From Armatimonadetes bacterium UBA1398 (GTDB lineage Bacteria; Armatimonadota; Zipacnadia; UBA1398), in the NCBI GenBank assembly GCA_002305165.1, contig DBQI01000065.1, positions 16,794 to 80,793 of the forward strand: a stretch of DNA of 64,000 nt. The letters are read 5' to 3'. The notes below the pieces were generated by a model. The model saw only the letters and a list, made by a program, of their open reading frames with translations. It was not told where the DNA came from and ran no database searches. The position numbers were made by a program, and so were the translations under genes. Below are positions 2,865 through 36,419 of the stretch, in pieces. The stretch's first letter is position 1. Every line of letters begins with the position of its first letter.

Positions 2865-3917
2865 TCAACCCCGCGCGGCCTCTTCGATCGCCTCAAAGAA
2901 GGCCACGATGTTGGGCCAGGGCACATCGGGCTCGACCACGTGTGTCGGCGCGAGGAATAACCCGCCCGAGGCGCCGACCTCGTCGATGAGCCGGTGAACG
3001 GCTCGCTTCACTTCGTTTGGGGAGCCGAAGGGGAGGGTGCTCTGGGTTCCTACGCAGCCCCAGAAGGCGAGGGAGTCGCCATACTCCGCCCGCAGTTCGA
3101 AGGGATCCATGCACTCCGGCTGCACCGGGTTGAGCACATCGATCCCCGCCTCCATCAAGCCTGGGATGATGGCTCTCACATCGCCATCGGTGTGGTACCA
3201 GATGTGGATATCCGGGTTCACCGCCCTCGCGGCATCAGCCGCGCGCTTGAGCCGCGGGAAGAGCCACTCACGCCACATCGAGGGGCTCATCATGAGGCGA
3301 TCCTGCATCCCCACATCGTCACCCAGCTGGAGCACATCGGCGCCCGCGCGGGCGATGCCCTCGGCACAGCGCACCACCTGCTCGGTGATACGGTCCAGCA
3401 GGAAGGCGGCCATCTCCTCGCGCTCGATGAAGTCCAGCATCAGCTCCTTCATCCCGCGGACCTGCCACGCAACCTCCCAGATGTGGCCGGCGAACCCGCC
3501 CACGGCGAAGCCCGCCTCATGGTGGGCGCGAGCGACCTCCCCGGCCGCGTCCGGCACGGTGTAGCTAGGCCACGGGTACTCCTCATACTGACCCAGCGAG
3601 TTGAATCGCTGAGCCGGAAAGCGGAGGCCCCAGAAGTGGTAGAAGTTCGCGGGTACGCGCGCCGTGCCATAGTCATCGATGGTGGTGCCCTCGGGGAGGT
3701 CCTGATCGGCATAGTAGCGGCTGAAGTCCGCTGTCTCGCTCGTTCGCTCGGGCCCGATGTGGCGCATCTCCATGCCGAAGTAGGTGGCGGGATCGCTGCT
3801 GCCGGTCTCCCGCCGGAACCGCTCGAACGCAGCCGGCGTGAAGCCCATCTCCTTCGGGAAGGCTCCTGGGTGCTGGTGGCGCAGGGTCATCAGTACGCGC
3901 TCGCGCGGCGTGGGCAT
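2865..3917 (-). CDS. uroporphyrinogen decarboxylase (URO-D) family protein, MtaA/CmuA-like rather than canonical HemE
   Basis: 354-aa track ORF; start moved to first ATG (M5). URO-D-like TIM-barrel length and composition; lacks the HemE N-terminal MRQAGR-type motif. Confidence 0.5.
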   Translation of the reverse strand: MPTPRERVLMTLRHQHPGAFPKEMGFTPAAFERFRRETGSSDPATYFGMEMRHIGPERTSETADFSRYYADQDLPEGTTIDDYGTARVPANFYHFWGLRFPAQRFNSLGQYEEYPWPSYTVPDAAGEVARAHHEAGFAVGGFAGHIWEVAWQVRGMKELMLDFIEREEMAAFLLDRITEQVVRCAEGIARAGADVLQLGDDVGMQDRLMMSPSMWREWLFPRLKRAADAARAVNPDIHIWYHTDGDVRAIIPGLMEAGIDVLNPVQPECMDPFELRAEYGDSLAFWGCVGTQSTLPFGSPNEVKRAVHRLIDEVGASGGLFLAPTHVVEPDVPWPNIVAFFEAIEEAARG

Positions 3918-3939
3918 GCTCGGCGGCACTCCTCGATAG

Positions 3940-4530
3940 CTAAGGGGCGACTTGCAGGGCGGCCAGCACCTGCTTGAACTCGGGCTGAAGGTGTTCCCAT
4001 TGGCTGATGAGCGACTGGAATGTGACGATGACGACTTGTCCGCTCGACCTCAGGAAGTAGAGTTGCATGACCTGCAGCTTCTGCTGGTCGCGTTCGTACT
4101 GGAAGACGATCTTCGCCACCGGCGGCGTCTGAGTGGTCATGATCTGCTCTGCTATGATCACCATGCTTGGGTTGGCCTGCACCAAGCTGTTGCGCTCGGC
4201 CGTGGCGTAGGCTTCGAGCGTAGGCTGCGAGGACTCGTGGAGGGTTACCGTGACGCTGGGCCGGAATGGCTCAGTGTGGTTGGTCCTCACATACTGGTAC
4301 GCCACCCCGGCCCTGGGGTTCGGGACGAGCTGCCAGCCGGCCACCTCGCGCACGCTCACCTGCGGCGCAGTCGGGTCCACTGCGGGTGCGGCAGGCTGTG
4401 GCGATACCACCTGTGGAGGCGTCGCGGGCACGGCCTCGGGCTCGGGCCGGTCCCTGCCACAGCCCGACATGAGGGCCGGGACGGAGAGCGCTAGCCAGAT
4501 TGTCAGCCTGCATCGCGTCATGCGAATCAT
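3940..4530 (-). CDS. hypothetical lipoprotein
   Basis: Track ORF 3940..4725 trimmed to internal ATG giving MIRMTRCRLTIWLALSVPALMSGC (signal peptide plus lipobox-like MSGC); Pro-rich linker then globular domain. Confidence 0.45.
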   Translation of the reverse strand: MIRMTRCRLTIWLALSVPALMSGCGRDRPEPEAVPATPPQVVSPQPAAPAVDPTAPQVSVREVAGWQLVPNPRAGVAYQYVRTNHTEPFRPSVTVTLHESSQPTLEAYATAERNSLVQANPSMVIIAEQIMTTQTPPVAKIVFQYERDQQKLQVMQLYFLRSSGQVVIVTFQSLISQWEHLQPEFKQVLAALQVAP

Positions 4531-4834: not shown

Positions 4835-6043
4835 GTGCGTCGTTCTCTTCCCAACCTGGTTCGTGTGTTCGGGATTGTCTGGTGCGGTCTCACTCTTCTC
4901 TGCCATTCCGCATCGGCTGCGCCCGAGCCCGAGAAGCAGGATGTCACCCTCAACGAGGTCATCGCCAGCCCCTCCCACTACCGGGACGCCGATATGTCGC
5001 TTGAGGGACTGGTGGGCGATGCACGGCTTGCCCGGGGTCCCGAAGGTCGCACGTGTTCCTTCGCCCTGGTCAGTCCTAACAGCAATATGGGCCTCGCCAT
5101 ACTAGGCGCTGACGCGCCGGAAACAGGCCTGTACGTGCGTGTGGAGGGTCCTCTGCGGCTCGATCCGCGGCTGAACACCCCGTACATCGAGTCACCCCGG
5201 GTAACTGTCCTCCACGAGCTGCCCCTGTGGCTGCGTCCCGCTGACCATCAGAGCCTTGCCGCCCTCGGCGCCATCCTGTGCGCCATGGCCGCATGCCTTC
5301 TCCTCGTCAGCATCCGCCGACCCTCCAGCGTGGCGCCGTCTCCAGAGCGCTTCAGTGCTCTGATCTCGACCGCCGTCTTGCCTCCGCGCGCTGAGACCCC
5401 GGCCCCGGCGACCGTCGCCGAGTACGTCGCGCCCGCCCCGGACACCTCGATCGGTGACGAGGGTTGCGAGCCGGGAGCATCTGACGACGATACGCCACTA
5501 ACGGGGGAGACCGTGTCCTTGGATCCGGAAGCTCTGGTGGCCGGGTCCGAGGGGCCGGCTCCATCCGGTCCTGCGGAGGGCGTGCCGGCCCGGGAAACCT
5601 CGACCGGTGACGAGAGTCCTGAGCCGACAGCATCGAGCGATGCGGCGCCCACGGCGGAGGCCGAGTCCGAAGAGCCCCCGACTGTGCCCGATGGGGACGC
5701 GTCCGTACCCATCGTCGGTATGGTACTGGAGGTCGTCGCGGGACCCGACCGGGGCAGGGTTTTCGAGGCGCGTGGCCCTAGAGTCACGATCGGCCGTTCG
5801 GAGGATCGCGACGTGCCCTTGACCGACGAGTTGGTCGCGCGCCATCAGGCGACCCTTACGCGCTCCAATGGGGTGGTGCTGCTCAGCTCTGAGGTTCCGG
5901 GCGCCGTAGTGTGTCTCAACTCCCGCCCGGTGCGCCAAGCGGAGATCGCGGCCCATGATGTCATTCGCATGGGATGCTCCGAGCTGCGCCTGATCGCCTC
6001 GCCATCAGCAGCGGAGCTAGGCCCTTCGGTACCCGCGCAATGA
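4835..6043 (+). CDS. membrane-anchored FHA domain protein (signal peptide, periplasmic domain, TM helix, acidic/Pro-rich linker, C-terminal FHA)
   Basis: C-terminal FHA signature RVTIGRSEDRDVPLTDELVARHQATL...NSRPV; internal hydrophobic helix LAALGAILCAMAACLLLVSI; stop overlaps next start (ATGA). Confidence 0.65.
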   Translation: MRRSLPNLVRVFGIVWCGLTLLCHSASAAPEPEKQDVTLNEVIASPSHYRDADMSLEGLVGDARLARGPEGRTCSFALVSPNSNMGLAILGADAPETGLYVRVEGPLRLDPRLNTPYIESPRVTVLHELPLWLRPADHQSLAALGAILCAMAACLLLVSIRRPSSVAPSPERFSALISTAVLPPRAETPAPATVAEYVAPAPDTSIGDEGCEPGASDDDTPLTGETVSLDPEALVAGSEGPAPSGPAEGVPARETSTGDESPEPTASSDAAPTAEAESEEPPTVPDGDASVPIVGMVLEVVAGPDRGRVFEARGPRVTIGRSEDRDVPLTDELVARHQATLTRSNGVVLLSSEVPGAVVCLNSRPVRQAEIAAHDVIRMGCSELRLIASPSAAELGPSVPAQ

Positions 6044-7275
6044 GCGATGACGTCCAGACCACTCCCGCCGAGGTCCCTGCCCTACCTGCCACACGCCCGG
6101 TGCGCGTTGGGTGCGCGGCGGCGCAGCCGGATGGGCTTGACCCCTGCCAAGCCGCCGTCGTCTGCGAGTGTCCCGCCGGAGGCGAGGTCCACTACGCCGC
6201 TGCGGCCTGCGTCATCGATGGCTCCCTCTCCCAGTCCAGAGGTGACATCGCGGCCTCCCTAGTTGCAGACCAGCTTGAGTCGGCACTCCAGTCTGGGCGA
6301 GCCCCCACCATTGGGGCGGGATTGGTGATGGCTCTGCACGATGCCGCAGAGGCCTTGAAGCGCCGCGCTAAGCTGCCTCACGACCCCGCGGACCTGAAGT
6401 GCAGTGCTGGTGTCGCGGTGCTGGATGACGGCAACTGGACCTTCGTTGAGGTCGGCGGCGCCCATGTGTTCCTGGAGCGAGGCCGGGCCGTCGGTCCGGT
6501 CTTCCGACAGGGACAGGCTGCCGATCCTCCTCTAGGCGATGAGGACTCCGCGCCCAGAGTCACGACGGCACGCGCTCTCCCGGGTGATCAGGCGCTGCTG
6601 CTGGGTGGCTACACCGCGGGCAGTCTCGACCTCGCCCGAGCTGCCCAGTCTCTCCGAGCTGCGCCCGATCTTGGGGAGGGCTGCAAGGCACTCGCCCGGG
6701 AGGCCCTCTCGACCCACCACACACCCCAGGCTCTGGCGTCCATCGTCCTGGATCGTCGGCCGCGTCGAGCACGATCTGTCGTGTTCCCCCTGCTATTCTC
6801 ACTCGCTTTCGTGGTGGCGGCCCTCGGGTTCGCCTTCCTTGCCTGGACGGGAGGACCGACGAGACCGATCATCCCGCCCGAGGCGCGAAGTGCGAACCTG
6901 CTGCCCATCGCTGAGGAACCCCAAGGCGCCGGCGTCGATGTCGGCGGGGCTCCCGGCCTGGTGGATATCGATCTCCCCGACGTCGAGGCCGTGCCGCGCG
7001 ATTCAGGCCGCGTCAAGGTGATCGGCGAGCCCGGACTCTGTTTCGAGGTCCTCGACCTGGCAACGGGCGAGTCCGTGTTGGAGGGCGAGATCCGCGAGGG
7101 ACAGGACTCCTACATCAGCCAGGGCATTCCCGCTCCAGGTCAATACTCTGTGACGGTATGGGAGTCGGCAGAGAAGAAGGAGGCCCGCATGGAGGGGCTC
7201 GAGTTCCATCTGGAACGGGACGCAATCAGGATTGTCGATTCCCGCAGAGGACACGAGCACGAGCCAGCGCGATAG
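6040..7275 (+). CDS. PP2C-like (possibly degenerate) membrane protein with extracytoplasmic C-terminal domain
   Basis: Start set at ATG 6040 overlapping the FHA stop. N-terminal region shows PP2C-like blocks (HYAAAACVIDGSLSQSRGD, AGVAVLDDGNWTFVEVGGAHVF, GDQALLLGGYTAG); TM helix VVFPLLFSLAFVVAALGFAFLAW. Confidence 0.5.
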   Translation: MSDDVQTTPAEVPALPATRPVRVGCAAAQPDGLDPCQAAVVCECPAGGEVHYAAAACVIDGSLSQSRGDIAASLVADQLESALQSGRAPTIGAGLVMALHDAAEALKRRAKLPHDPADLKCSAGVAVLDDGNWTFVEVGGAHVFLERGRAVGPVFRQGQAADPPLGDEDSAPRVTTARALPGDQALLLGGYTAGSLDLARAAQSLRAAPDLGEGCKALAREALSTHHTPQALASIVLDRRPRRARSVVFPLLFSLAFVVAALGFAFLAWTGGPTRPIIPPEARSANLLPIAEEPQGAGVDVGGAPGLVDIDLPDVEAVPRDSGRVKVIGEPGLCFEVLDLATGESVLEGEIREGQDSYISQGIPAPGQYSVTVWESAEKKEARMEGLEFHLERDAIRIVDSRRGHEHEPAR

Positions 7276-7355: not shown

Positions 7356-7613
7356 ATGGAAGACACCCCTGAACTGAGGAGCCAGCTACGCGAGCTTGTC
7401 GTAGAGCGCCTCGCACTTGATGTTGACCCAACCGAACTCGACGACTCCGCCAACCTCATGGATGTCTACGGAGCCGACTCGGTAGGCCTCTTCTGGATCG
7501 TTGTGGGGCTGGATGAGGATCTCGGCGTGCAGGTCGGCGAGGACGAGTTCGATCTGGAGCGGTTCAGCAGCATCGAGAACCTAGCGAAGTTCCTCTCCGA
7601 GCGCGAGGCATAG
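7356..7613 (+). CDS. acyl carrier protein-like (phosphopantetheine-binding)
   Basis: 85-aa acidic protein from internal ATG of track ORF 7158..7613, GGAGAGG about 15 nt upstream; GADSVGL resembles the ACP DSL phosphopantetheine attachment motif. Confidence 0.6.
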   Translation: MEDTPELRSQLRELVVERLALDVDPTELDDSANLMDVYGADSVGLFWIVVGLDEDLGVQVGEDEFDLERFSSIENLAKFLSEREA

Positions 7614-7639
7614 CCCTCGCACCCACGGGGCGACCTGCC

Positions 7640-8452
7640 ATGGAGAGCTACCAGTTCATCCCTTCGGGCAGCGAGGAGATCCTCACGGCCTACCATGCCG
7701 CCGTCGACGGATCGCCGCCCGTCCGCTGCGCCGTTCTGGTGGCTCCTCTCCACGAGGAGAAGAAGGCCGCCCACCGTCCCCTGGTGGACCTGGCCCGCGC
7801 GCTCGCGAACAGAGGTTGCGCCTGCCTGCGGTTCGATCCACGGGGCACGGGCGACAGCCCCGGCGTGGCGGATGACCTCTGCTTCAGCACGCTCCGACAG
7901 GATCTGACGGTCGCCATCGACCAAGCCCGCACCCTCTCCGGTCTGGAGAAGGTCAGCCTTCTGGGGGTTAGGCTGGGCGCCGATCTCGTGGCACTCGAAG
8001 GGCTCGCGGGCACTGAGGTGGATCACACCCTACTGTGCGTGCCTCTCATCAGCGGCGAGCGCTACCTGCGGGAGGTACGGATACGCGGGAGGATTCGAGG
8101 CGCGATGACCACCGCGGAGGGCGGCGAGGAGGCCTCCGGCCGGTCGGCAGGGTTGGACTACGGTGGGCACTATGTCTCCCCCGAGCTGATCGCCGACCTG
8201 GAGGCCCACGATCTGATGGTTGACGAGTCCCCCCTAGCGGCGCGGGTCACCTGCATAGACATCCGAGGCAGGGATAGCATGACGGCCCCCCTGTCGGCCC
8301 TCGTTGCGAGGCTGCAGAGCCGAGGCGCCAGCGTCGATGCGCGGGTGGTGCTGGACGAGCCTTTCTGGAACGCACTGGGGCCCATCGTCCCTCGCGCGTT
8401 CATTCAGGCTGTGGTCGAGATCCTCACCGGTCGAGAGGACGAGGCCCGATGA
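7640..8452 (+). CDS. alpha/beta-fold hydrolase
   Basis: 270 aa; alpha/beta hydrolase-like layout; stop overlaps next start (ATGA at 8449..8452). Confidence 0.55.
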   Translation: MESYQFIPSGSEEILTAYHAAVDGSPPVRCAVLVAPLHEEKKAAHRPLVDLARALANRGCACLRFDPRGTGDSPGVADDLCFSTLRQDLTVAIDQARTLSGLEKVSLLGVRLGADLVALEGLAGTEVDHTLLCVPLISGERYLREVRIRGRIRGAMTTAEGGEEASGRSAGLDYGGHYVSPELIADLEAHDLMVDESPLAARVTCIDIRGRDSMTAPLSALVARLQSRGASVDARVVLDEPFWNALGPIVPRAFIQAVVEILTGREDEAR

Positions 8453-9297
8453 GCCTGTCGGAGCGCTTCATCGAGTTCGTCGGCGAGAGCGGCGGGGTGC
8501 TCCGCGGCATTCTGCACGAGCCTGTCGAGGCGAGGGACCTGCCACCTGTCATCATGTTCTCAGGCTGGGGCGGCACACGGTATGGGCCCAACCGAATACT
8601 GCTCGAGGCGGCGCGGGATCTGGCCACAGATGGTCGCGCGGTTCTCCGGGTCGACTTCCGAGGTCGGGGAGACTCCGACGGATTTGTGGACGAGCATGAC
8701 CTTCGGTCCCACATCATCGACGGCAGGACCATGGTCGCCTGGTCGCGACGGAACCTGGCGGATCGCCCGCCGGTGCTTCTGGGCATCTGCTCGGGGGGCG
8801 AGGTCGCGGTCGGCTGCATCTTCGACGGCTTGGATGTTGACTCAGTCTGCCTCTGGTCGGCGCCCGTCTTCGCGGCCCAGGCCACGACCGAGAGGGTCGC
8901 CACGAAGCGAGCCTCCTACCTCAGGGAGTACGGGCGGAAGCTCTTCCGAGGTGAGACCTGGCGGAAGCTCATCGCTGGCGAGGTGCGGTTCGATATCATC
9001 CGGCGGGTGCTCGGCAAGGCAGGTGTGCACGTGAAGTCCGAGGACGAGCCGGCGGAGTTGTCGGCGCAGTCGGACTTCCCCGCGCGATGCGAGGCCGCGC
9101 TGCTCATCTACGGCACAGCGGACCCGATCGCCGCAGAGGCGATCCAGGCGTACCAGGCTCTCTTCAGCCGCGCAGGATGTTCCACTGAACTCCGCCATAT
9201 CGAGGGTGCCAACCACGGGTTCTATGCCCTCGACTGGAAGCGTGAGGTGATCGAGAGCACCAGGGGCTGGCTGGCCGGTCGGGGTACCGCCTCATGA
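8449..9297 (+). CDS. alpha/beta-fold hydrolase
   Basis: 282 aa; nucleophile-elbow-like GICSGG and C-terminal GANHGF (catalytic His candidate); coupled to flanking genes by ATGA overlaps. Confidence 0.55.
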
Positions 9298-10397
9298 GGC
9301 GCATCCTCTTTGTCAGCCATGTGGGGGAGTTGGGGGGCGCGGAGCACTCCCTCGTTACGTTGGTCTCGTGCCTCGATCAGGGCCGCTACGACGCCCACGT
9401 TGCCCTGTCCACCATCGACTCCCCGTTGGGACGCGCGCTGTTAGAGCGGGGCGCTGAGACCCACGCCATCCCATCGCTGCGTCCGCTCCGCCGGCGCGAC
9501 CCGTTCATGCCGATCACCCTCATCCGAGGCCAGCGCGCGTTGTCCGCCCTGGCACGGAGGCTGAGGCCGGACGTCATTCACGCGAACAGCGACGTGTCGA
9601 TGGCGTACGCGGCCGGACTCTACACGGAATCAGGCTCGGGGCGAACCCCCTGGCGGATCGTCTGGCACCTTCGCGACATGCGAGGCGCGGGATACTGGGT
9701 CCGCCACCTTCGCGATCACTCTCACGCGCGCATCGCAGTGAGCCGAGCGGTGCTCGATCATCACGGCCTACACGCCTGCGAGCGGTCGCGAGTCATCTAT
9801 AACGGAGTCGACCTGTCACGCTTCCGACCGGGTCTATCGGGGGCGTCCATCCGACGCGAGCTGGCGATTGGCGCGGACCGTGTGCTGTGCCTCTGCGTGG
9901 CTCAGGCGGTCCCATGGAAGAACCTGGACACATTCGCCGGGCTCTCCGGTGAGGGGTACGAACGGCTGCTCATCGCCTATCCTCCCCCGGGAGGCAGGCC
10001 CATGGCCTGTCCCGCTTCTGGACCGGGGCTGCAAGTGGTCGGCTACCGCGACGATATGCCCGAGGTGTACGCGGCCGCGGACGTGCTCGTCCATCCGGCC
10101 ATCGGCGAGGCCTTCGGCCGCACGGTGGTCGAGGCCATGGCGTGCGGAGTGCCGGTGGTCGCCTACCGCCATGGAGGACCCGCGGAGACGATCGTGCATG
10201 GAGTGAGCGGCCTGCTCGTCGACCCGAAGGAACCGGAGGCCTTGGAGTGTGCCGTGGATCGTCTCGTGGCCGACGCTGACCTCCGGGGCCGCCTCGCTGT
10301 CGGTGCGGCCGAGCGGGCCCAGGCGTTTTCCTCCGAGAGTCACGCGGCCCAGGTGGAAGCGTTCTACGAGGATCTCATCGAGGGGGGAGCGGGGTGA
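9294..10397 (+). CDS. GT4 family glycosyltransferase (GT-B fold)
   Basis: C-terminal retaining-GT4 signature [25 protein letters not shown]; GTGA overlap with next gene. Confidence 0.8.
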
Positions 10398-11512
10398 GGG
10401 TCGGCATCGACTGCTCGGTCCTTCACGGACGCTTCTCCGGTGTGGAGAAGGCCGTCCGTGGGCTGATCGGAGGGCTGGCCGAGACCCAGGGCGAGCAGGA
10501 GCTGGTCCTCCTCTGTGGGCGCAAGCCGCCGCTCGATCTCCCGTTGCCATCGGGCATGGTGTGGCACTGCAGCGACTTCGACCCAGCCAACAGACTCCGC
10601 CGCATCGCCTTCCAACAGTGGGAGCTGCCCCGACTGGCCAAGCGCCTGGGCCTCGACGTGCTACACGGACCGGCCTATATAACGCCTGTTCACGCCCGCT
10701 TCCCGACTCTAGTGAGCGTGTACGACCTGATGGTCTTCCTCTATCCCGACCTCTGCGCACGAGCCAACCGTGTGCACTATCGCCTGGTCATGCCGCGCTG
10801 CGTGCCACGTTGCGAGCGGGTCCTCGTGCCTAGCGCCATCGTGGGGTCCTCGGTCGTGGAGACGCTCAGGGTGGATCCGGCTCGTGTCCGAGTGTCGCAC
10901 CTTGGCCTGGACCCCATCTTCGCGAGGTCCCCAGACGCGGAGGAGGTCGCCTCCCTCCGGGACCGACTGAACTTGCCCGAGCGGTTCCTCCTGTTCGTCG
11001 GCAATCTGGAGCCCAAGAAGGGCCTCGATGTCCTCGTCCGCGCGCTGGGTAGGCTCCGCGAGGGCCCGCCCCTCGTTATCGCGGGCAAGCGCGCTTGGGG
11101 CGTGGGCGGACTCGATGAGCTGATCGCCTCTGAGGGCATCCAAGACCGCGTTACGTTCACGGGGTACGTGCCCGATGAGGATCTCCCCGCCCTGTACGCG
11201 GCGGCCCGCTGGTTCGTGTTCCCCTCCATCTACGAAGGCTTCGGCCTGCCGCCCCTGGAGGCTATGGCATCTGGAACACCAGTGATCGCCTCCGATGGTG
11301 GCGCGCTCCCGGAGACCACCGGCGATGCCTGCGTCCGCGTCGAGGCGGGCAGCGTAGAGGAGCTCGCGGAGGCGATATCGGCTTCCTGGGGCGACGATGC
11401 CCTACGCGAGAGCCTGTCACGTGCCGGCGTCGTGCAGGCGAGCCGGTTCTCCTGGAGAAACCACGCTCTGGACGCGCGGCAGCTCTACGCGGAGGTGCGC
11501 CATGGACCCTAG
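10394..11512 (+). CDS. GT4 family glycosyltransferase
   Basis: GTG start overlapping previous stop; signature [22 protein letters not shown]. Confidence 0.8.
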
Positions 11513-12704
11513 CGCGCGGATCGCCTATGTGCTTGGCTCGTTCCCGAGCCCATCGGAGACGTTCATCCTGACAGAGATGTCTCTGCTGCGAGAGCGGGAC
11601 ATTGAGCCACTCGTCGTCGCACTCGAGCGTGGCCCCGATGTGGGCGACGACCGCGTCGCGGCTCTTGAGGCTGCGGCTCGCTACCGTCCCGCGCGATGGG
11701 TCTGCGTCCTGCAGAGCCTGCTCTACGGCATCGGCGGGGATGCCCGCGCCCGACTCCACGGCGCCGCAGCGGCGCGGTTCGCGGAGCAGCTGGCCCCTCT
11801 GACCCCGACGCATGTACACGCTCACTTCATGGGGGCGCCAACCCTCGTAGGCCACGCCATGGCCCGCATGATGGGGCTCAGCTTCACCTTCAGTTGCCAC
11901 GCCTCCGATGTCTTCACGGCCGGCGACCCCACTCCCGAGGAGCATGCGGCCGTCTATGACGCCCACGCAATCATCGCATGCTCCGAGTACCTCCGGAAGC
12001 ACCTCATCGAGCGCAGGGGGTACCCCCGCGAGAAGGTCATCACCATCCACCATGGCATCGATCTGAGTCGAGTGCCGGAGCGCGCGGCTCCGACCGATTC
12101 CACCGAGCCGGTCTTGGTGGCCGTAGGCCGACTGGTTCCCAAGAAGGGCTTCGATGTGCTGCTGCGCGCGGCCGCGCCGATGCTGAAACAGGATCGGATC
12201 GCCCTGCGGATCGCAGGGGAGGGCCCTGAAGGAACGCGGCTTAGAGCCCTTGCCGTCGATCTCGGCGTGTTGGACCGGGTGGAGTTCCTCGGCCGGCTCA
12301 CGTGGGAGGACACCCTGCGGACGATAGCCGAGTCCAGCGCACTCATCGCGCCCTCAGTGACGGCCGAGGACGGCGACATGGACGGGATCCCCAACGTCCT
12401 CCTGGAGGCTGGCGCGTTGGGAGTGCCGGTCATCGCGAGCCGGCTGTCCGGCATCCCCGAGCTCGTCGAGGACGGCAAGACCGGGCTGCTCACAGCCTCC
12501 GGGGATGAAGGGGCGCTTGGCAAGGCGCTCCGCCGCGTCGCGGACAGCGCGGACCTTCGGGCGCAGCTCGGAGGAGCCTCTCGCGAACGGATCCGCCGCG
12601 AGTGGAGCGCAGCCGACTCCGTAGGCCAGATCGCTGGCTTGTTCCGCGAGGCAGCGGCTCACACGACTGTGCCGGTCGAAGGCATCGAAGGGGCGCGTGC
12701 GTGA
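11502..12704 (+). CDS. GT4 family glycosyltransferase
   Basis: Start set at ATG 11502 (M36 of track ORF 11397..12704), 11-nt overlap with previous gene; signature GIPNVLLEAGALGVPVIASRLSGIPELV. Confidence 0.75.
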   Translation: MDPSARIAYVLGSFPSPSETFILTEMSLLRERDIEPLVVALERGPDVGDDRVAALEAAARYRPARWVCVLQSLLYGIGGDARARLHGAAAARFAEQLAPLTPTHVHAHFMGAPTLVGHAMARMMGLSFTFSCHASDVFTAGDPTPEEHAAVYDAHAIIACSEYLRKHLIERRGYPREKVITIHHGIDLSRVPERAAPTDSTEPVLVAVGRLVPKKGFDVLLRAAAPMLKQDRIALRIAGEGPEGTRLRALAVDLGVLDRVEFLGRLTWEDTLRTIAESSALIAPSVTAEDGDMDGIPNVLLEAGALGVPVIASRLSGIPELVEDGKTGLLTASGDEGALGKALRRVADSADLRAQLGGASRERIRREWSAADSVGQIAGLFREAAAHTTVPVEGIEGARA

Positions 12705-13642
12705 CCGCATCCCCGAGCGCCGCGAGGATACTCGTTGCCGATGACGACGCGCAGCTTTGCGACGCCCTCGTCCAGCTTCTCGGCGTTGCCGGCCACTCGG
12801 TTCAGACCGCTGGCGACGGGTATGCCTGCATCGAGGCCATCCGGGCTTTCGAGCCCGATGTGCTGATCCTCGATCTCTCCATGCCGAACCTGGATGGTTA
12901 CGGCGTCATCCGCGAGATGGAGGTTCTCGATCTCGCGAGCCAGCCGCCCGATGTCATCGTCCTGACTGGGCACGCCGGCGTCTCGGAGGGGGCACGGGCC
13001 ATTCGCTCGGGGGCCATCGGCTTCCTCACCAAGCCGGCGCGGAGCGTCGAGCTCCTCACCCTCATCGATCGCGCGGTGGCGGCCCGACGGGCCCTCGACC
13101 AGAAGCTCAGCGCCTTCAGCGAGTCTCGCAAGCACTGGGAGTGTTCGGTGGCTTGCCAAAGACGCAACATACGCCACGTTGTGAACCACATCGCGGCGGA
13201 GATCGAGGTCACGGGCCTGATCCCGCCCCGAGGCATACGGCGGATCCTCATGGCGGCCGACGAGGCGATCACCAACGCGGTCGTCCACGGAGGCCTGGAA
13301 GTCGGGTCGCTGATCAAAGAACGGGCCGATTCCCTCGGCTTCGAGCAGGCCTGCGCCATTCGGGAGGCCCAGGCTGGGCACGGTGACCGTCGGGTGACTG
13401 TCGCCCTGGACATCAACCCTGACGAGTTGGTCATCACTATCCAGGACCAGGGCCCCGGGTTCGATGTGTCGGACCTGCCCGATCCGAGCGATCCGGACGC
13501 GCTATTCAGGGCGAGCGGCCGTGGTATCATCATCATGCAGTCCCTGCTTGATGAGGTCCGGTTCGAGGACGCCGGCAGACGAACCATCATGGTTCAGCGA
13601 GCGCGTGGTACCATAGAGGCGTCAGCCAAGCAGGTGATGTGA
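12701..13642 (+). CDS. response regulator receiver (REC) domain fused to RsbW/SpoIIAB-like HATPase_c domain
   Basis: GTG 12701 overlaps previous stop (GTGA). REC motifs ILVADDD, LILDLSMPNLDG, LTKPA; C-terminal GHKL-type ATPase-like region; no HisKA or DNA-binding domain seen. Confidence 0.6.
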   Translation: MTASPSAARILVADDDAQLCDALVQLLGVAGHSVQTAGDGYACIEAIRAFEPDVLILDLSMPNLDGYGVIREMEVLDLASQPPDVIVLTGHAGVSEGARAIRSGAIGFLTKPARSVELLTLIDRAVAARRALDQKLSAFSESRKHWECSVACQRRNIRHVVNHIAAEIEVTGLIPPRGIRRILMAADEAITNAVVHGGLEVGSLIKERADSLGFEQACAIREAQAGHGDRRVTVALDINPDELVITIQDQGPGFDVSDLPDPSDPDALFRASGRGIIIMQSLLDEVRFEDAGRRTIMVQRARGTIEASAKQVM

Positions 13643-13748: not shown

Positions 13749-14534
13749 ATGCGTAGGCTAGCGGGACTTTGCGCTTCCATCATCGGCGTCGGAGCCCTCG
13801 TGGGCGTACTGCTCGCGCAGGGTCCGGCGGACGATGTCGCCCGGGCTCAAACGGGGATGCCCGCGGCCCCAAGTGCTCCGGGAGCGGCGGGGACCGGCGC
13901 GATGATGGGCGGCGGCATGATGGGTGGCGGGATGATGGGCATGGGTGGCGCGGCTGCCACCGATGCGGCGCCCGCCGCGCCTACCGTTACGGTCACCCGG
14001 CAGGTGAAGGACGATCTGGCCGAGGGCGACGACGTGGTTGTCGATGTCGTCAACGGCGCCACCCTGCAGCTTCAGAATGGCGTCGACGGCCAGGTCTTCG
14101 TGCGCCTCGATGGAGTCGTTCTGCCACGCGAGTCCGTTCGGCTGCGCTCGGACTGGACCAAGGTCGAGGGCACGGGGGATCCCTGGGACTGGCGCCGTTT
14201 TGATGGCGCGCTCTACAAGGACGCCACCATCCCCGACATTGAGACCTACCGCAAGGGGGAGGACGAGCTTCGGGCCTTCGTGATGGACACCGTCGTCAAC
14301 CGGACCGTCACGGTGGAGAAGGTCGGCGACTTCCTCCAAGCCAACGGCAAGACGATCCCTGCCGTGAAGATCACCTACACCCGCCCCGAGATCCTCATAG
14401 GGCAGGACACGGGCCCCTTCGACCTCAATGCCGAGGTCATCGCGAAGACCAAAGCCTTGGGCCTCTGGAACTGCATGTGGGACCGCGGGAAGCCGAAGGC
14501 ATTCGACTGCAGCACGCAGAGATGGGCCAACTAG
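13749..14534 (+). CDS. secreted protein with Met/Gly-rich repeat (MMGGGMMGGGMMGMGG)
   Basis: Start at internal ATG giving signal peptide MRRLAGLCASIIGVGALVGVLLAQG; Met/Gly repeat then globular C-terminal domain with two Cys. Confidence 0.5.
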   Translation: MRRLAGLCASIIGVGALVGVLLAQGPADDVARAQTGMPAAPSAPGAAGTGAMMGGGMMGGGMMGMGGAAATDAAPAAPTVTVTRQVKDDLAEGDDVVVDVVNGATLQLQNGVDGQVFVRLDGVVLPRESVRLRSDWTKVEGTGDPWDWRRFDGALYKDATIPDIETYRKGEDELRAFVMDTVVNRTVTVEKVGDFLQANGKTIPAVKITYTRPEILIGQDTGPFDLNAEVIAKTKALGLWNCMWDRGKPKAFDCSTQRWAN

Positions 14535-14560: not shown

Positions 14561-14591
14561 AGAGGGGGCAGCTCCTAGAGCTGCCCCCTCT
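14561..14591. terminator. GC-rich hairpin between convergent genes (candidate bidirectional terminator)
   Basis: Perfect inverted repeat AGAGGGGGCAGCTC / GAGCTGCCCCCTCT with a 3-nt loop; no U-tract. Confidence 0.4.
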
Positions 14592-17166
14592 AACGTACCG
14601 GTCTCTGATCTGTGCGCTCAACCCTCACGGCCCCCGCCGCCTGGGCCTCGCGGTAGACATCCCTCGTTATGCGGTAGGGCAACGGGTCTGGAACCCCAGT
14701 GATCGAAAGGGGCCTGGGCGCGACCATAGCCGCCAGATGGGGCAGGTCCACGACAGACAGGATGTGGGGAGCCCGAGGCCCTGAGCGCCCCGCGGAGTAG
14801 GTCGGCCCGAGTTCGCGCACGTCCACGGCCTGGATGTTCGTGTCCATCGCCGCGGCGATCAGCGCCAGAACCCCGGCATCAGACCACGCGAGCAGCGAGA
14901 CTCGGGCCGGGTCGACCCCTGGCTGGGCGCGCAACCAGGCTACAGCGGCCAACATGTCGCGAGCGCCCTCCACGGCGGCGGGGCAGCCGAGGATCACCCC
15001 GTTCATGTTCAGCGTCTGCTTCGGGCCGGCCCCGGCGCACTCACCCATCCAGCGCGGATCCAACAGGAGCACGCGGCCTCCGCCCGCTACGACGCGGTGC
15101 AGCTCGCGGCGCGAACTCGACCAAGCCAAGCGCTTGCCCTCAGGATGCACGACAACCACCGCCGGTCCGGGGTCAGTGGATCCCTCGGGCTCGATCAGCA
15201 TCGCCGGAATGCTGAAGTCCGGATCGACGGCCAGGCTGAGCATCCTGGTTCGGAGCCCCACGACCTGGCCCTCGGTCACCTGGGTGGACCCGGGGACGGA
15301 CGGCGGGGCGAGCATGCCGCGTGACCACGCCAGCAGCTTGCCTCGCACCTGCTCGTTACACGCCTGGATCGTTCCGAGTGAGCGCAGTCGGGTGTACTGC
15401 TCGCCTCGACGCAGGTCGAACTCGCGCGCTATCGCCGCCAGCCCATCGGACTCAGGAGGGCTGTCCAGCGCGCTGAGCTCCTCGACCGTGGGGACTGGCA
15501 CGTCAAGCTCAGCCACTGGGCCGGCGTCGGGAAGCTCCCTGAGCCACCGATCCATGAACTGGTAGGTCTCCTCTCGCATGGCCTGGTTGTAGTCGTGGCC
15601 GGACTCGTGATGGGTGGCCCAGAGCTTCTCCTGAGCCCCGTAGAGCCCATAGACAGCCTGGACCTGGGGGAGATCCTCTGCGGGGAAGGTCGCCGTCCAG
15701 TCGCCCGTCACGGTGATGATGAGCGCCGGATCCGGCGCCATCCGGGCCGCCATCTCCGGAGCGTCGGTGTCCGCAGCCACCCCGGGCACATGATTGCAGT
15801 CGCAGTGGACCTCGTAGGGGTCCAGGATGGTGCGGAACTTGGACACCATGCAGACGGGAACTGCCGCCCTGAGCCGATCATCGACCGCCATGAGGTAGAA
15901 GGTCTGCTGGGCCCCTCCGGATACGCCGGCGCTGCCTATCCTATCGGGGTCAACGAAGGGGAGGGATTGCAGCAGGTCGATGGCGCGGATGTTGTTCCAC
16001 GTCATGACGGTCTGGGGCATGATCCCCCGCTCCCAGTCGTAGAGATGCACGCTGTCGGGAGCCAGGCAGACGTACCCCCGGAGCGCCAGGTTCACGAGGC
16101 GGGCCTGCACAATGGGGTGGCGGTTCCCGTTCTCCCAATGGCCGTGGGGGTTCAGCACGGCGCAAGCTCTGCCCTCGATATGGTCGGGCCGATAGAGGTA
16201 CCCTGCCGCCCAGTAGCCCGGCCAGGACTCCCAGTAGAGGCGCTGGACGGTGTAGCCCTCCCGCTCCATGCGGCGCCCCCAGTGGACATTCACCGGCCCA
16301 CGGCTGGGCAGCGGCCATAGGCCCAGGTCATCCAGCACTCTCTCGCGGATCTCATCGCGTCGCGCTTTCCACGCAGTCAGGTCTGCGGGCCTCCAGGGTC
16401 TAGGCTGGGCGATCCGCGTTAGGTAGGATGCGTACTGGTCTCGCATGGACTGGGGTGACAGAACCTCCATTGCCTGTGCCTCCCTAACTGCGGCCAACAC
16501 CTCGGGCGGTGTGCCGCGCCAGATGCTCAGGTTGTCGAGATCGCCCACATAGGGCTGGTGGGTGTCCAGGTTGTTGCCGGCACGGAGTTGTACTTCGGAG
16601 GGGCCCCCGGGGCCGGGCTGAGCGAGGGCTCGCAGTTCGCCGTCGATCTCCACCCACGCGAGCGCCAACTCGGCGTCGTGGCCCGCGCGGACACGGTGCC
16701 ATTCACCGTCGTTCACCGCGCCTGCGCTTCCCAGCTTCACCCGGCGCCACGACCACAGCTCGAAGGACAGGTGCCCGGGATCGCGGCCGATCACGACGCT
16801 CCAACTGACCTCACCCCCGGGTGCCGTCTTCGTCATCAGCAGTGTTGCGAAGCTCCGCTGCACGGTGCGCATGAGGAACTCGATCGTGAAGCTACTCTCG
16901 CTGTCGAATGCCCAGGCCGAGGATCCCGGCCACGTGATGGCTTCCGAGCCTTCGGAGAAGCTCAGCCAGCGGTTCTGCCCTTCACCGGCCCGGAGACCAT
17001 CGGCCACTGGGACTTCCACGGCCAGGGCCCCGTCACCAACGGCCGGGCCAGATTGCTCGTCGAAGCCCCAGGAAGCCACCAGATCCATCTGAGCCTGCCC
17101 CGACGACGCCAGCAGCGCCCCTACCATGGCAAGGCCGGCCCAGTGCGAACGATACACTCCCATCAC
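14590..17166 (-). CDS. secreted LamG/concanavalin-like lectin domain plus alpha/beta-hydrolase (esterase/peptidase-like) protein
   Basis: 858 aa; signal peptide; N-terminal LamG-like segment (FTIEFLMRT...GEWHRV); C-terminal hydrolase with nucleophile elbow GVSGGAQQT. Confidence 0.55.
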   Translation of the reverse strand: MMGVYRSHWAGLAMVGALLASSGQAQMDLVASWGFDEQSGPAVGDGALAVEVPVADGLRAGEGQNRWLSFSEGSEAITWPGSSAWAFDSESSFTIEFLMRTVQRSFATLLMTKTAPGGEVSWSVVIGRDPGHLSFELWSWRRVKLGSAGAVNDGEWHRVRAGHDAELALAWVEIDGELRALAQPGPGGPSEVQLRAGNNLDTHQPYVGDLDNLSIWRGTPPEVLAAVREAQAMEVLSPQSMRDQYASYLTRIAQPRPWRPADLTAWKARRDEIRERVLDDLGLWPLPSRGPVNVHWGRRMEREGYTVQRLYWESWPGYWAAGYLYRPDHIEGRACAVLNPHGHWENGNRHPIVQARLVNLALRGYVCLAPDSVHLYDWERGIMPQTVMTWNNIRAIDLLQSLPFVDPDRIGSAGVSGGAQQTFYLMAVDDRLRAAVPVCMVSKFRTILDPYEVHCDCNHVPGVAADTDAPEMAARMAPDPALIITVTGDWTATFPAEDLPQVQAVYGLYGAQEKLWATHHESGHDYNQAMREETYQFMDRWLRELPDAGPVAELDVPVPTVEELSALDSPPESDGLAAIAREFDLRRGEQYTRLRSLGTIQACNEQVRGKLLAWSRGMLAPPSVPGSTQVTEGQVVGLRTRMLSLAVDPDFSIPAMLIEPEGSTDPGPAVVVVHPEGKRLAWSSSRRELHRVVAGGGRVLLLDPRWMGECAGAGPKQTLNMNGVILGCPAAVEGARDMLAAVAWLRAQPGVDPARVSLLAWSDAGVLALIAAAMDTNIQAVDVRELGPTYSAGRSGPRAPHILSVVDLPHLAAMVAPRPLSITGVPDPLPYRITRDVYREAQAAGAVRVERTDQRPVR

Positions 17167-17177
17167 CCTCCTCGGGG

Positions 17178-19298
17178 CTATGGGAGGCCGAGGTCACGCA
17201 GAGGCTTCAGCGCCGCCTCGGCCCGCTCGTCTTGCCCCAGCGAGCGGTAACACTCCGCCAAACGCAGTCGTTCTTCCTTCTCCGCGGGAGGAACACGGAA
17301 GGCGAACGCCTGCTCGAAAGCCTCGATGGCGCCTCGGGCGTCGCCCGCCTCGTAGAGGGCGTTCCCGAGGGCTTTGTTCAGAGGTCCCAGCACCGTGATG
17401 TCCCAGACGCGCCGCCGGTGTCGTTCGAGGAGCCGCGCTGCCGACTCGGGCTGGCCCAGCGCGCGGCGGATTCGCGACTCCTGGATCACAAGCCTGTCGT
17501 GATGCGGCGCGATCTCCCGACCGAGAGTGATGAGCCCGAAGGCCCCCCACGGATCGCCATAGAGGAGCCGCTCGTCGCTCAGTTCCAGCAGTGGCGCCAT
17601 CGCCATCTCGCGGACGCCACGGTCCGTTGGGTGCTCCGCCATGCACCACCGCGCCCAAGCGAGACACTCCCGGACCAGCGCCTCATATGTGGCGGGGTCC
17701 TCCTCGGCCAGATTCACGGGATGGGCGGTGACTTGGCTGACCCAGCCTCGTGTCTCAAGGTGCGCCCCGGCCGCCTCGTACCAACGCGCCCCCGCGGAGA
17801 ACACCCCGCCAGCCCGCACTGCCAGGCTAGCCAGGTGGCGCTCGCGCTCCAGGAAGACCTGCTGGAAGGACCCCTCGACCTCTTCCTGGCTGGCGCCCAT
17901 CCACTCCTGCACGTAGCGGTACGAGTTGTCATCCAGTTCGGGGGCGAGCCAGACCCGTTGCTCGGTGCTCTGCTCCACATTGCGGCAGTAGTAGAGCGGG
18001 AAGATCCGATGGTCGCCGACGACATGCTCATCACCGCAGATGAGATCCGTTGCGGGATTGCCTAACGCGGCGATAGCCCGGTCGGCGTAGTAAGCGGCCA
18101 TCCACTCGGTGCTCCGATCCACCTCCCTGTAAGTGCGCGGCGTCTCGGCGAGCAGCCAGGCCAGAAGGACTGACAGGATGATCGCCACCGCCTTCCTCCC
18201 CCGCTCCTGGGCATCACCGAGGAGGAAGGCGATCCCGTGCAGGCCGGCCCCCGCCAGCCCAACTATCCCGAGGTAGGCGGGGATGAAGAACACCTCCTGG
18301 TCCATCGCCGTGTAGTTCCAGAAGAAGCCGAGGGAGGCCACCGCTAGCCACGCGAAAGGCGCCAGGCGCGTCCCCGCCGGACGCCACCCCACGACGTACC
18401 CGCCGAGGGCAAGCGCCCAGACGGGAAGCGACAGCTCCGCTGCTAGGCGGTGCCAGTCTCCCCTGAGCATCGTCCCCCAGAGAGGCGGCTGGGCGCCCCA
18501 CATGAACCGGCGGTAGGGGCCTGCTGAGATGGTGAACTTGAAGTCAGCCCAGGTCTTCGGCTTCGCCCAGCAGTACGCGGCTCCCTGATCCAGGTGGGGC
18601 CACGCCCCAGCCCGCAGCGGGAGATGCAGCCATACCAACTGAGACAGCAGGTACCCGCCCACGAAGGCTCCCAGCACGCTCCATCTCAGCCATAGGCGTC
18701 GAGGCTGTCCGATGAACAACGGCAGCAGCCCCAGTTGAAGGAGCGCGTTGAAGGGCCGGTGGGTGACGGCGAGCCCCAGGAGCAGTCCCAGCCCCAGCGC
18801 CCACCACCAGCGCACCGCTTGGCCCGCTTCCAGCCCTCTCCGCATCCGCAGCGCCCCCGCCAGCCCTGCCGTCAGGAGGGCTATGTCGAGGGTGTACACC
18901 TCGGTCAGGGTGGCCTGGTCCCAGACTACAGGGGTCAGGCAGAAGGCCCACGTGAGGAGCAGGGCGGTGACGTCGTGGCGGACCAGCTCGCGTAGTGAGA
19001 TGAACAGGAATAGGCCCGCGAAGCCCAGCCAGATGGCTGAGAGCAGGTTGGCGCTCGCCGCCAGGGAGGCGAGGGGCACGACCTGGCTCCAGCCCCAGGT
19101 CAGGAGCACCCACAATGGGTAGCCGGGCGCATGGGCGATGCCTCGCTGCCCCACGGCGGACAGCAGTTCGCCCGCGTCCCCGAAGGTGATCGATGGCGCC
19201 ACGGTCCAGACCACTACTGCCAGCACACCGAGGGACGAGAGAGCGCCACATACCGGGCAGCTTACGGCGGCGAGGTTAGTGGTCAGGGGACGCTGCAT
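17178..19298 (-). CDS. DUF2723-like multi-pass membrane protein (putative GT-C/PMT-like glycosyltransferase) with C-terminal TPR-like repeats
   Basis: 706 aa; N-terminal about 400 aa of hydrophobic helices with FGDAGELL motif; soluble C-terminal helical repeat region. Confidence 0.55.
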   Translation of the reverse strand: MQRPLTTNLAAVSCPVCGALSSLGVLAVVVWTVAPSITFGDAGELLSAVGQRGIAHAPGYPLWVLLTWGWSQVVPLASLAASANLLSAIWLGFAGLFLFISLRELVRHDVTALLLTWAFCLTPVVWDQATLTEVYTLDIALLTAGLAGALRMRRGLEAGQAVRWWWALGLGLLLGLAVTHRPFNALLQLGLLPLFIGQPRRLWLRWSVLGAFVGGYLLSQLVWLHLPLRAGAWPHLDQGAAYCWAKPKTWADFKFTISAGPYRRFMWGAQPPLWGTMLRGDWHRLAAELSLPVWALALGGYVVGWRPAGTRLAPFAWLAVASLGFFWNYTAMDQEVFFIPAYLGIVGLAGAGLHGIAFLLGDAQERGRKAVAIILSVLLAWLLAETPRTYREVDRSTEWMAAYYADRAIAALGNPATDLICGDEHVVGDHRIFPLYYCRNVEQSTEQRVWLAPELDDNSYRYVQEWMGASQEEVEGSFQQVFLERERHLASLAVRAGGVFSAGARWYEAAGAHLETRGWVSQVTAHPVNLAEEDPATYEALVRECLAWARWCMAEHPTDRGVREMAMAPLLELSDERLLYGDPWGAFGLITLGREIAPHHDRLVIQESRIRRALGQPESAARLLERHRRRVWDITVLGPLNKALGNALYEAGDARGAIEAFEQAFAFRVPPAEKEERLRLAECYRSLGQDERAEAALKPLRDLGLP

Positions 19299-25893: not shown

Positions 25894-27252
25894 ATGATGC
25901 GCAACCGATGGGCAGCGACGGCTGTGGCGTTGCTGCTGCTGAGCACTGCGGCTCTGGCCGCGGCGACGCCGGATCTGGAGGGCTGGGTCGAGACCGATCG
26001 CGCCAGCTATCGAGTGGGCGAGCCGGTCCGCGTCGCTTTCTGCATCCGAAACAACGGCCCCGAGGATGTCGACCTTGTGGTCGCCGGTCCCGAGGCACAG
26101 CTCCGCGTAGGAGCTCTGGGCGTTCTGGAGACCCCGAGCCGCTCTGCGGACCGGCCGGAGGAGATCCTTATTCGCCGTGGCGAGACGACCGTCTACCGGT
26201 TCGACATCGACCCTTCGGACCTGGACATTCCCGCTGGTACTCATCAGATCGTCGGCGCCCTGCAGCCTCTGGTGGGCGCGCCTATCCAGGCTGTCGGCCA
26301 GTTCGTAGTCTGCCAGCTGCCTGACTACCTCAAGGTCGCCGACGTGCTCGCGGCTCCCCATGTGTGGGCCGACGGCGATGTCGTCGAGCTCCGCGGCGAG
26401 TACCGCGGCAACCGCGCCCGCCCCTTCCGCCCCCTCGACGGTGTCGAGGCGCCCTGGGCCACGGACTGGATCCTGGGCGACGAGACGGGCGAGATCTACA
26501 TCCACAACGCCCCCTCCAAGGAGCACTACAACGACTGGACCTGGCACATCGACGACCCGTATGTTGCCCCGAAGACCGACGTGGGGACCATTTCCTCGCC
26601 CGTGCTCCTCTACAACCCGCCCGAGGTGGGCGATAAGGCCGAGTTCCTCCACCCCGAATGGACCTACGGCAAGCGCGTCATCGTTCGCGGCCACGTCATC
26701 ACCCATGACAGCGGCCTCGTCACCGTCGCTCCGGTGGAGATCTTCAAGTGGCAGACAGACCGAGGCGCCTTCTGCGTGCTCGAGACCGAAGGACCGCCGC
26801 AGACCGAGGCGGGCCCCAGCCAGATGCTCCTGCGGATGATCGTCAAGAACGACACCGCGTTCCCACTCATCCTCGCCCACGCGAGCGGCTTCAGATACGA
26901 CTTCGTTGTCGAGCGCGACGGCGAGGAGGTGTGGCGCTGGTCCCGGCATCAGGGCATGTCCGAGGGGCTCTCCTGGATGACCGTGAGCGACGACTCGTGG
27001 AAGCCTGGCCCGAACTCACCACTCGTCGACCGCTCGGTGACCACTGTGACGCCCCATGAGGGGAACCGCGCCTCGGGCCGGAGCACCGTGCCACCCGACA
27101 ACGCCCTGGTCTACACCGCGTACTGGCCCCTGGTGGACAATGATGGCCGGCCCGTTGAGCCGGGCGTCTACCAGATCTCCGGCTTCATCAGCCACCGCGT
27201 GTTCACCTATCCCGTTCCTGTCGTCGTTGGGCATGCGGCTGCCCTGCCCTAG
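25894..27252 (+). CDS. secreted protein with BsuPI-like (intracellular proteinase inhibitor-like) beta-sandwich domain
   Basis: ATG with GGGGAGGG 7 nt upstream; signal peptide; C-terminal segment ASGFRYDFVVERDGEEVWRWSRHQG resembles BsuPI. Confidence 0.45.
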   Translation: MMRNRWAATAVALLLLSTAALAAATPDLEGWVETDRASYRVGEPVRVAFCIRNNGPEDVDLVVAGPEAQLRVGALGVLETPSRSADRPEEILIRRGETTVYRFDIDPSDLDIPAGTHQIVGALQPLVGAPIQAVGQFVVCQLPDYLKVADVLAAPHVWADGDVVELRGEYRGNRARPFRPLDGVEAPWATDWILGDETGEIYIHNAPSKEHYNDWTWHIDDPYVAPKTDVGTISSPVLLYNPPEVGDKAEFLHPEWTYGKRVIVRGHVITHDSGLVTVAPVEIFKWQTDRGAFCVLETEGPPQTEAGPSQMLLRMIVKNDTAFPLILAHASGFRYDFVVERDGEEVWRWSRHQGMSEGLSWMTVSDDSWKPGPNSPLVDRSVTTVTPHEGNRASGRSTVPPDNALVYTAYWPLVDNDGRPVEPGVYQISGFISHRVFTYPVPVVVGHAAALP

Positions 27253-27381
27253 CTGGTCGCGGCTCGAGGGGAGGATTCCCCACGGACCGATACAAGATGC
27301 CGATAGCGGGTGGACCCGTCCTCTGGCGCGGGTGCCGTCCTGGTTCGCTTCGTCTGGCGAAGACTTGGGGCGTCTGATCCA

Positions 27382-35402: not shown

Positions 35403-35403
<1 letters not shown>
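34207..35403 (+). CDS. tsaB: TsaB (YeaZ)-like domain fused to RimI-type GNAT N-acetyltransferase
   Basis: N-terminal MILALSTTTEVASIALA...GPGSFTGARIGVA (TsaB); C-terminal GNAT core with acetyl-CoA loop RRKGVAKRLM and YRASNRAAAQLYEELGF (RimI-like). Confidence 0.75.

Positions 35404-36419
<1,016 letters not shown>

Follow-up and report, generated by a model that had tools for sequence, protein, structure and literature searches.

Gene pair and protein architecture

The gene described here encodes a membrane-anchored PP2C-like protein and lies on the forward strand of contig DBQI01000065.1 (assembly GCA_002305165.1) from Armatimonadetes bacterium UBA1398; a gene for an FHA-like membrane protein stands directly upstream of it. 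The whole stretch of DNA that was analysed (64,000 nucleotides, contig positions 16,794 to 80,793) is referred to as the window, and all positions are counted from its first letter. An original prediction, made by reading the sequence by eye, had described the product as a candidate pseudophosphatase, that is, a PP2C-like domain in which metal-binding aspartates are substituted, coupled to a transmembrane-anchored FHA protein. The two genes and the parts of their products are collated below.

4835..6043 (+): gene of the FHA-like membrane protein (402 amino acids), overlapping the next gene by 4 bp
5216..5257 (+): invariant motif ELPxWxRPxDxQxL of the FHA-like protein, just before its transmembrane helix
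5255..5314 (+): transmembrane helix of the FHA-like protein
5720..5995 (+): C-terminal FHA-like domain
6040..7275 (+): gene of the PP2C-like protein, a candidate membrane pseudo-PP2C (411 amino acids), from the open reading frame list, the NCBI product and the family alignments
6097..6759 (+): predicted cytoplasmic PP2C-fold domain (amino acids ~20-240)
6778..6846 (+): transmembrane helix of the PP2C-like protein (amino acids 247-269, VVFPLLFSLAFVVAALGFAFLAW; helix 249-269 in the AlphaFold2 model)
6838..6888 (+): predicted extracytoplasmic juxtamembrane motif of the PP2C-like protein (LAWTGGPTRPIIPPEAR), from alignments
7006..7248 (+): seven-strand Ig-like beta-sandwich, predicted to be extracytoplasmic (amino acids 323-403)

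The translation spans 6040..7272 and is contained in an open reading frame of the + strand that runs from 5974 to 7275. The start was placed at 6040, because all homologue N-termini and the NCBI annotation match there; the longer alternative starting at 5974 was rejected for the same reason. The FHA-like gene ends with the TGA at 6041..6043, which together with the ATG at 6040 forms the 4-bp overlap ATGA. An identical product of 411 amino acids is listed by NCBI under MBP7560298.1 and named "hypothetical protein"; the labels of the metagenome-assembled genomes disagree (Armatimonadota, WS1, Acidobacteriota). In the assembly collection, 127 blocks contain contigs with the exact protein, one of these contigs being 4.17 Mb long.

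The PP2C-like protein consists of a PP2C-like domain, one transmembrane helix and a beta-sandwich on the far side of the membrane. According to the positive-inside rule, the sequence RRPRRAR before the helix places the N-terminus in the cytoplasm, so that the PP2C-like domain is predicted to be cytoplasmic and the sandwich to lie outside. The juxtamembrane motif, LAWTGGPxxPxIPPEAR, is among the best-conserved stretches of the family (P273, P276, P279 and A282 are invariant in nine sequences) and is connected to the sandwich by a variable linker. The sandwich itself was modelled at a pLDDT (predicted local distance difference test) of 85.5. Structure comparison of this C-terminal domain returned no specific family, only a generic likeness to Ig-like, CBM, transthyretin and CnaB domains.

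Evidence for the PP2C fold

Sequence comparison with curated models stayed below threshold. Pfam PP2C_2 matched the PP2C-like protein with 20.8 bits (E 3e-4), short of the 24-bit cutoff; no curated family threshold was reached among Pfam PP2C, PP2C_2 and SpoIIE or in NCBIfam, the NCBIfam scan of the protein giving no match. Sequence searches of the PDB with the single protein or with a profile of four sequences gave nothing significant, and the relationship to PP2C therefore had to be established by profile-profile and structure comparison.

For the profile-profile comparison, a profile built from nine family members was aligned by hhalign to a small profile of PstP, the genuine PP2C P0011 and the PP2C encoded at 27382..29253 of the window. 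A probability of 98.1% (E 4.9e-13) was obtained in global mode and of 97.5% in local mode. The AlphaFold2 model of the protein was of moderate quality (mean pLDDT 61.6) and had its strands and helices in the order found in PP2C. When this model was submitted to Foldseek, PP2C structures only were retrieved (SpoIIE, PPM1K, PstP, tPphA and PppA), with E from 4e-10 to 1e-7. The N-terminal domain thus has the alpha-beta-beta-alpha sandwich fold of PP2C, and the relationship is not a chance resemblance. On this point the profile-profile alignment, the strand and helix order and Foldseek all agree with the original prediction, which had the N-terminal region following PP2C. The flap region of the domain is shorter than in PP2C and remodelled (RGRxxGPVF...LGxExxAPRxTT).

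Metal-binding residues

Residues were mapped with PstP and P0011 as guides; P0011 has every motif intact and matches PstP with E 4e-30. The following correspondences were obtained for the PP2C-like protein:

PstP D25 (motif I, NED): A38 or G47 in different alignments; the site carries no acidic residue that is conserved
PstP D38-G39 (DG, motif II, bridging M1 and M2): D60-G61 (6217..6222); kept
PstP D118 (GDSR, third metal): G140 (6457); lost
PstP D191 (SDG, ligand of M1 and M3): G190 (6607); lost
PstP D229 (DN, last motif, ligand of M1): Q230 (6727), or P229 in local mode; lost

Across the family, the Asp of the DG motif is present in eight of nine members in the profile alignment. That of GDSR is found in none of the nine (G, S, A or P in its place) and that of DN likewise in none (Q, H, L, A or M); that of SDG is kept by a single protein (P0009), the position being otherwise variable (G/A/Q/P/D/Y). 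Motif I, which in PP2Cs (RxxxED) supplies acidic residues that bind metal-bound water and the phosphate-binding Arg, is non-acidic throughout the nine members and aligns as PCQAAVV or at G47, the alignment being less certain here. Other stretches are invariant in the family: GNW, FLxRGRxxGP, LGxExxAPRxTT, PGD and LRxAP, with RGR, GP and APR among them. Because the former ligand positions vary freely and these motifs do not, the site appears to have been released from catalytic constraint and new conserved surfaces to have been gained, above all the shortened flap.

Catalysis by PPM phosphatases relies on a binuclear metal centre coordinated by Asp residues, and activity is lacking in TAB1, PHLPP2 and E. 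coli RssB, which are deficient in some of these ligands (PMC12002173; PMC6546054). By its residue pattern, the protein is accordingly best described as having the fold of PP2C but a binuclear metal site that has been dismantled, and is predicted to be catalytically inactive. D60-G61 have been retained, and in PPM1A no protein ligands of M2 are known besides this Asp-Gly pair; one remaining metal, as with TAB1 and PHLPP2, is therefore possible.

The two strings on which the candidate pseudophosphatase had been based are present in the translation (FVEVGGAHVFL, amino acids 135-145; ALLLGGYTAGS, amino acids 185-195). The profile alignment that had been proposed as a check was run: it places Asp at only one of the four to five metal positions, with neither Asp nor Glu at the others, and so bears the proposal out. 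The replacement of metal Asp in both blocks stands as well; their naming as the second and last blocks does not, as the motifs concerned are GDSR (third metal) and SDG, and the true last motif (DN) has been lost in addition.

FHA-like partner protein

The upstream product is composed of a signal peptide, a conserved extracytoplasmic domain, the juxtamembrane motif, the transmembrane helix, a linker rich in Pro, Glu, Ser and Thr, and the C-terminal FHA-type domain. Its top Pfam match is Yop-YscD_cpl (PF16697, the cytoplasmic FHA-like domain of SctD/YscD), with E 7e-13 and 49.1 bits against a cutoff of 33.2; Pfam FHA follows behind it with E 5e-7. Identity as a component of a type III secretion system was considered for this protein and rejected, as the corresponding families were not found among the window open reading frames scanned.

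The motifs GR, SxxH and NG are the three that are crucial for phosphothreonine binding in FHA domains (PMC3162421). They were read from an alignment of eight orthologues to the FHA domains of FhaA and GarA. The GR dipeptide is kept (TIGRS in the window protein), with Arg in seven of the eight orthologues and His in the remaining one (L001). At the SxxH site the window protein has VARHQ versus VSRRH in FhaA; most orthologues have Ala instead of Ser, and none of the eight has the canonical His, Q, E or D standing at that position. The NG loop is likewise absent from all eight (PG-AVV in place of STNGT). Since GR is the only motif kept, the partner probably does not read phosphothreonine in the canonical way. 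On the FHA side, the originally proposed pair that binds or sequesters phospho-Thr is hence not borne out, one of the three motifs (GR) being kept and SxxH and NG lost.

Conservation and selection

An exhaustive search with a hidden Markov model of 1.84 billion cluster representatives returned eight family members at E <1e-30, together with two marginal PP2C-like matches, namely the genuine PP2C P0011 and a partly degenerate transmembrane PP2C (P0012), whose gene surroundings proved uninformative in both cases. Word-indexed searches gave no relatives beyond the eight representatives, and two scans of the GTDB representative genomes gave none. The search with the FHA-like protein yielded an equally small family.

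Compared with a 91%-identical orthologue (L014), the ratio of nonsynonymous to synonymous substitution (dN/dS) was 0.24 in the PP2C-like domain and 0.18 in the C-terminal one, and in the family alignments the full architecture is retained down to ~30% identity. Purifying selection and a conserved architecture mean that the gene is not decaying; a pseudogene in decay was rejected on these grounds and in view of the frame, which is intact in many assemblies. The protein thus combines a PP2C fold, loss of the catalytic Asp ligands and retention under selection, by which a pseudophosphatase is defined (PMC6546054; PMC12002173).

Gene neighbourhood

The FHA-like gene was found directly upstream of the PP2C-like gene in all seven loci with upstream sequence (the window, L001, L002, L007, L009, L011 and L013) and also in L014. 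Between them there is either a 4-bp overlap or a gap of 6-25 nt. The coupling to a transmembrane-anchored FHA protein that had been predicted for the window is therefore real, tight and conserved. Downstream of the pair in the window, and beyond it on either side, the following genes are located:

3940..4530 (-): probable lipoprotein (lipobox LMSGC), divergent from the pair; weak DcrB-like match (E 0.04)
7356..7613 (+): acyl carrier protein (ACP; NCBIfam ACP, PF00550), with the phosphopantetheine Ser present (GADSVG)
7640..8452 and 8449..9297 (+): two alpha/beta-hydrolases, weakly like exosortase-A-associated hydrolases 2 and 1
9294..12704 (+): operon of overlapping genes for three GT4 glycosyltransferases
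12701..13642 (+): last gene of the operon, a fusion of REC and HATPase_c_2 (RsbW/SpoIIAB-like Ser kinase fold; Pfam REC E 2e-22, HATPase_c_2 E 1e-18)

In six of the seven loci, an ACP and one or two alpha/beta-hydrolases directly follow the pair; the exception is L013, in which a CreD-like membrane protein takes the place of the ACP. The hydrolases of the window were matched by TIGR03101 (E 1e-22) and TIGR03100 (E 8e-18), both well under the curated cutoffs. The segment from 7356 to 9297 hints at acyl modification of a polysaccharide or glycolipid. Three GT4 genes and the REC-HATPase_c_2 fusion continue the operon in the window and in the distantly related L009/L010 clade, and are not found in every locus of the family. 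No STAS partner of the fusion was seen nearby, the adjacent protein of 261 amino acids (13749..14534) having no Pfam match, and no Hanks-type kinase was present among the window open reading frames scanned.

A gene of the same size stands at the position of the lipoprotein gene in L007, L009 and L011. Genes for TMEM260-like GT-C proteins, Wzy_C and sugar-modifying enzymes occur near the pair in various loci. The TMEM260-like GT-C of the window (17178..19298, -) resembles protein O-mannosyltransferases and carries C-terminal TPR repeats; such a gene likewise adjoins the cassette in L011. Next to the TMEM260-like gene of the window lies one (14590..17166, -) for a protein of 858 amino acids that includes Laminin_G_3 along with segments resembling acetyl-xylan-esterase or S9 hydrolases. 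URO-D-like (uroporphyrinogen decarboxylase family) paralogues are also found near the cassette, at 2865..3929 (-) in the window, twice upstream in L003, once in L009 and once downstream in L007.

Proposed role and alternative explanations

The explanation that we favour, and regard as somewhat probable, is that of a transmembrane scaffold or sensor without catalytic function, in which a pseudo-PP2C is paired with a degenerate FHA protein and which serves the adjacent operon for an envelope glycoconjugate. The PP2C-like protein would be anchored in the cytoplasmic membrane with its inactive PP2C-like domain inside and the small Ig-like sandwich outside. It would be made together with the upstream single-pass protein and most likely be held in a complex with it, and both would expose their juxtamembrane motifs, which are strongly conserved, on the outside of the membrane. 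In such a heteromeric scaffold or sensor, the old phospho-signalling folds would be used as docking surfaces between proteins, possibly independently of phosphorylation, and the pair would organise or regulate the adjacent pathway of ACP, alpha/beta-hydrolases and GT4 enzymes. The physical interaction of the two proteins is suggested by the conserved gene pairing, and their link to the ACP/hydrolase/GT4 pathway by gene order.

A more specific form of this proposal is put forward tentatively. The co-degenerated pseudo-PP2C and pseudo-FHA might constitute a phosphorylation-independent transmembrane device that passes an extracytoplasmic cue, or the state of envelope assembly, to an ACP-dependent pathway for an acylated glycoconjugate. 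The pair would then be a fossil Ser/Thr module, its kinase lost and its phosphatase and reader dead, which is reused as a structural switch.

Several observations weigh against the scaffold or sensor explanation. The conservation of D60-G61 hints at residual binding of a metal or another ligand; P0009 has kept the Asp of SDG, and in P0006 Asp/Glu occurs close to DN. In the AlphaFold2 model, pLDDT falls to <50 in the flap and in some of the loops. On the partner side, weak or atypical phospho-binding is conceivable through the FHA Arg conserved in seven of the eight orthologues, and with a REC-HATPase_c_2 gene in the same operon phospho-signalling may still take part. The link to the pathway is drawn from gene order only, and L013 departs from that order.

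An alternative is a pair that still reads or sequesters phosphorylated residues, the dead PP2C pocket trapping phosphoserine or phosphothreonine and the FHA domain binding a phosphorylated partner through its Arg, with the signal coming from the REC-HATPase_c_2 protein or from a kinase elsewhere. D60-G61 and the GR dipeptide are conserved, a gene with the HATPase_c_2 fold (RsbW-type Ser kinase fold) has been kept in the operon in two clades, and the long Ser/Thr/Pro/Glu-rich linker of the FHA-like protein could be phosphorylated. Phosphate is bound in PP2C by the metals and the Arg of motif I, however, and in the present protein the ligands of M1 and M3 are gone and motif I is unrecognisable. 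The FHA domain is in turn without SxxH and NG, and the FHA-like precedent MxiG-N, which lacks part of the GR/SxxH/NG set, shows no phosphothreonine binding (PMC3162421). Neither a STAS substrate nor a Hanks-type kinase was detected nearby among the scanned open reading frames, and we consider a phospho-reading pair unlikely. An enzyme that remains active is also rather improbable. It would be a divergent one-metal hydrolase of the PP2C fold, using D60/G61 with, for example, E137 or H142, or would catalyse other chemistry, perhaps on a non-protein ACP or glycoconjugate substrate; the near invariance of D60-G61 and the close neighbourhood of ACP and hydrolase genes are in its favour. The former ligand positions are nevertheless unconserved within the family, which is the pattern of relaxed constraint and not of a re-tooled site, and E137 and H142 vary as well. 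SidD and Lem3, in contrast to this family, keep the Asp metal cluster.

It is also conceivable, though we think it improbable, that the pair has no specific link to its neighbours and consists of lineage-specific membrane proteins of unrelated function that stand beside a glycoconjugate operon by chance. The CreD-like gene of L013 and the absence of the GT4 and REC-HATPase genes from some loci would fit this. An ACP and hydrolase that directly follow the pair in six of seven loci, among members that are only ~30% identical, argue against it, as does purifying selection.

Comparison with known systems

The PP2C-like protein shares its membrane architecture with PstP of M. tuberculosis and other membrane-anchored bacterial PPM/PP2Cs. 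PstP has all metal Asp residues and is Mn-dependent, whereas the present protein keeps the equivalents of D38/G39 only, has a shorter flap, stays below the Pfam cutoff and has no Hanks-type kinase nearby among the open reading frames scanned. The C-terminal domain of E. coli RssB is likewise a PP2C fold without some of the catalytic Asp residues that serves as a non-catalytic interaction module (PMC6546054). TAB1 and PHLPP1/2 are eukaryotic, soluble and found in other domain contexts, and their losses are independent of those described here. Specific homology of the PP2C-like protein to RssB (REC-PP2C) or TAB1 was not found.

The FHA-like protein resembles SctD/YscD/MxiG in two respects: it crosses the membrane once, and its cytoplasmic FHA fold has an incomplete set of the motifs GR, SxxH and NG. 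The order of domains is reversed with respect to these proteins: its FHA domain is C-terminal, and its extracytoplasmic domain is N-terminal behind the signal peptide. Type III secretion genes were not found among the window open reading frames scanned, and the match to PF16697 is one of the domain only.

PP2C pseudophosphatases (RssB, TAB1, PHLPP) and FHA folds that do not bind phosphothreonine (MxiG and other SctD-family proteins) are already known. What appears to be undescribed is a PstP-like membrane architecture with a dismantled site, its obligate pairing with a degenerate membrane FHA protein, and a family that lies outside the curated models. In literature searches, no description of this pseudo-PP2C/FHA pair was found, and the one PP2C pseudophosphatase of bacteria that they retrieved was E. 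coli RssB. Pseudoenzymes are well documented in eukaryotic signalling and barely catalogued in bacteria. If the proposal is true, both halves of a phospho-signalling module have been repurposed jointly as non-catalytic parts, probably controlling envelope glycoconjugate synthesis. A protein named only "hypothetical" can now be given a fold and a topology, together with a partner that can be tested, and genes of this kind should not be named phosphatases or phosphothreonine readers from the fold alone. The immediate impact is limited by the very small size of the family and by its restriction to uncultivated organisms.

Other features of the window

The PP2C at 27382..29253 (+), to which the original prediction had compared the present protein as a bona fide enzyme, deserves that description in part. 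The Asp residues of NED, DG, GDSR and (T)DG are kept; that of the last motif is replaced by Gly (GGRGN versus GGPDN in PstP). It is built of a PP2C domain, a Pro/Glu-rich linker, a transmembrane segment and an extracytoplasmic domain, an architecture that it shares with the PP2C-like protein, and it may be impaired or atypical.

The GC content of the window is ~67-70%, and many long open reading frames overlap on opposite strands (for example 27016..29349 (-) and 27310..29253 (+)). These overlaps are compositional artefacts, and the length of an open reading frame alone is therefore no evidence for a gene in the window. An Rfam scan of the window gave no RNA families. At 34207..36419 (+), a TsaB-like N-terminal domain is fused to a GNAT (RimI-like) acetyltransferase and TsaD follows directly, which makes up a compact tRNA t6A / RimI pair. 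A protein of 1189 amino acids is encoded at 43913..47482 (-), its sole Pfam match being a C-terminal cytochrome c554/c-prime motif.

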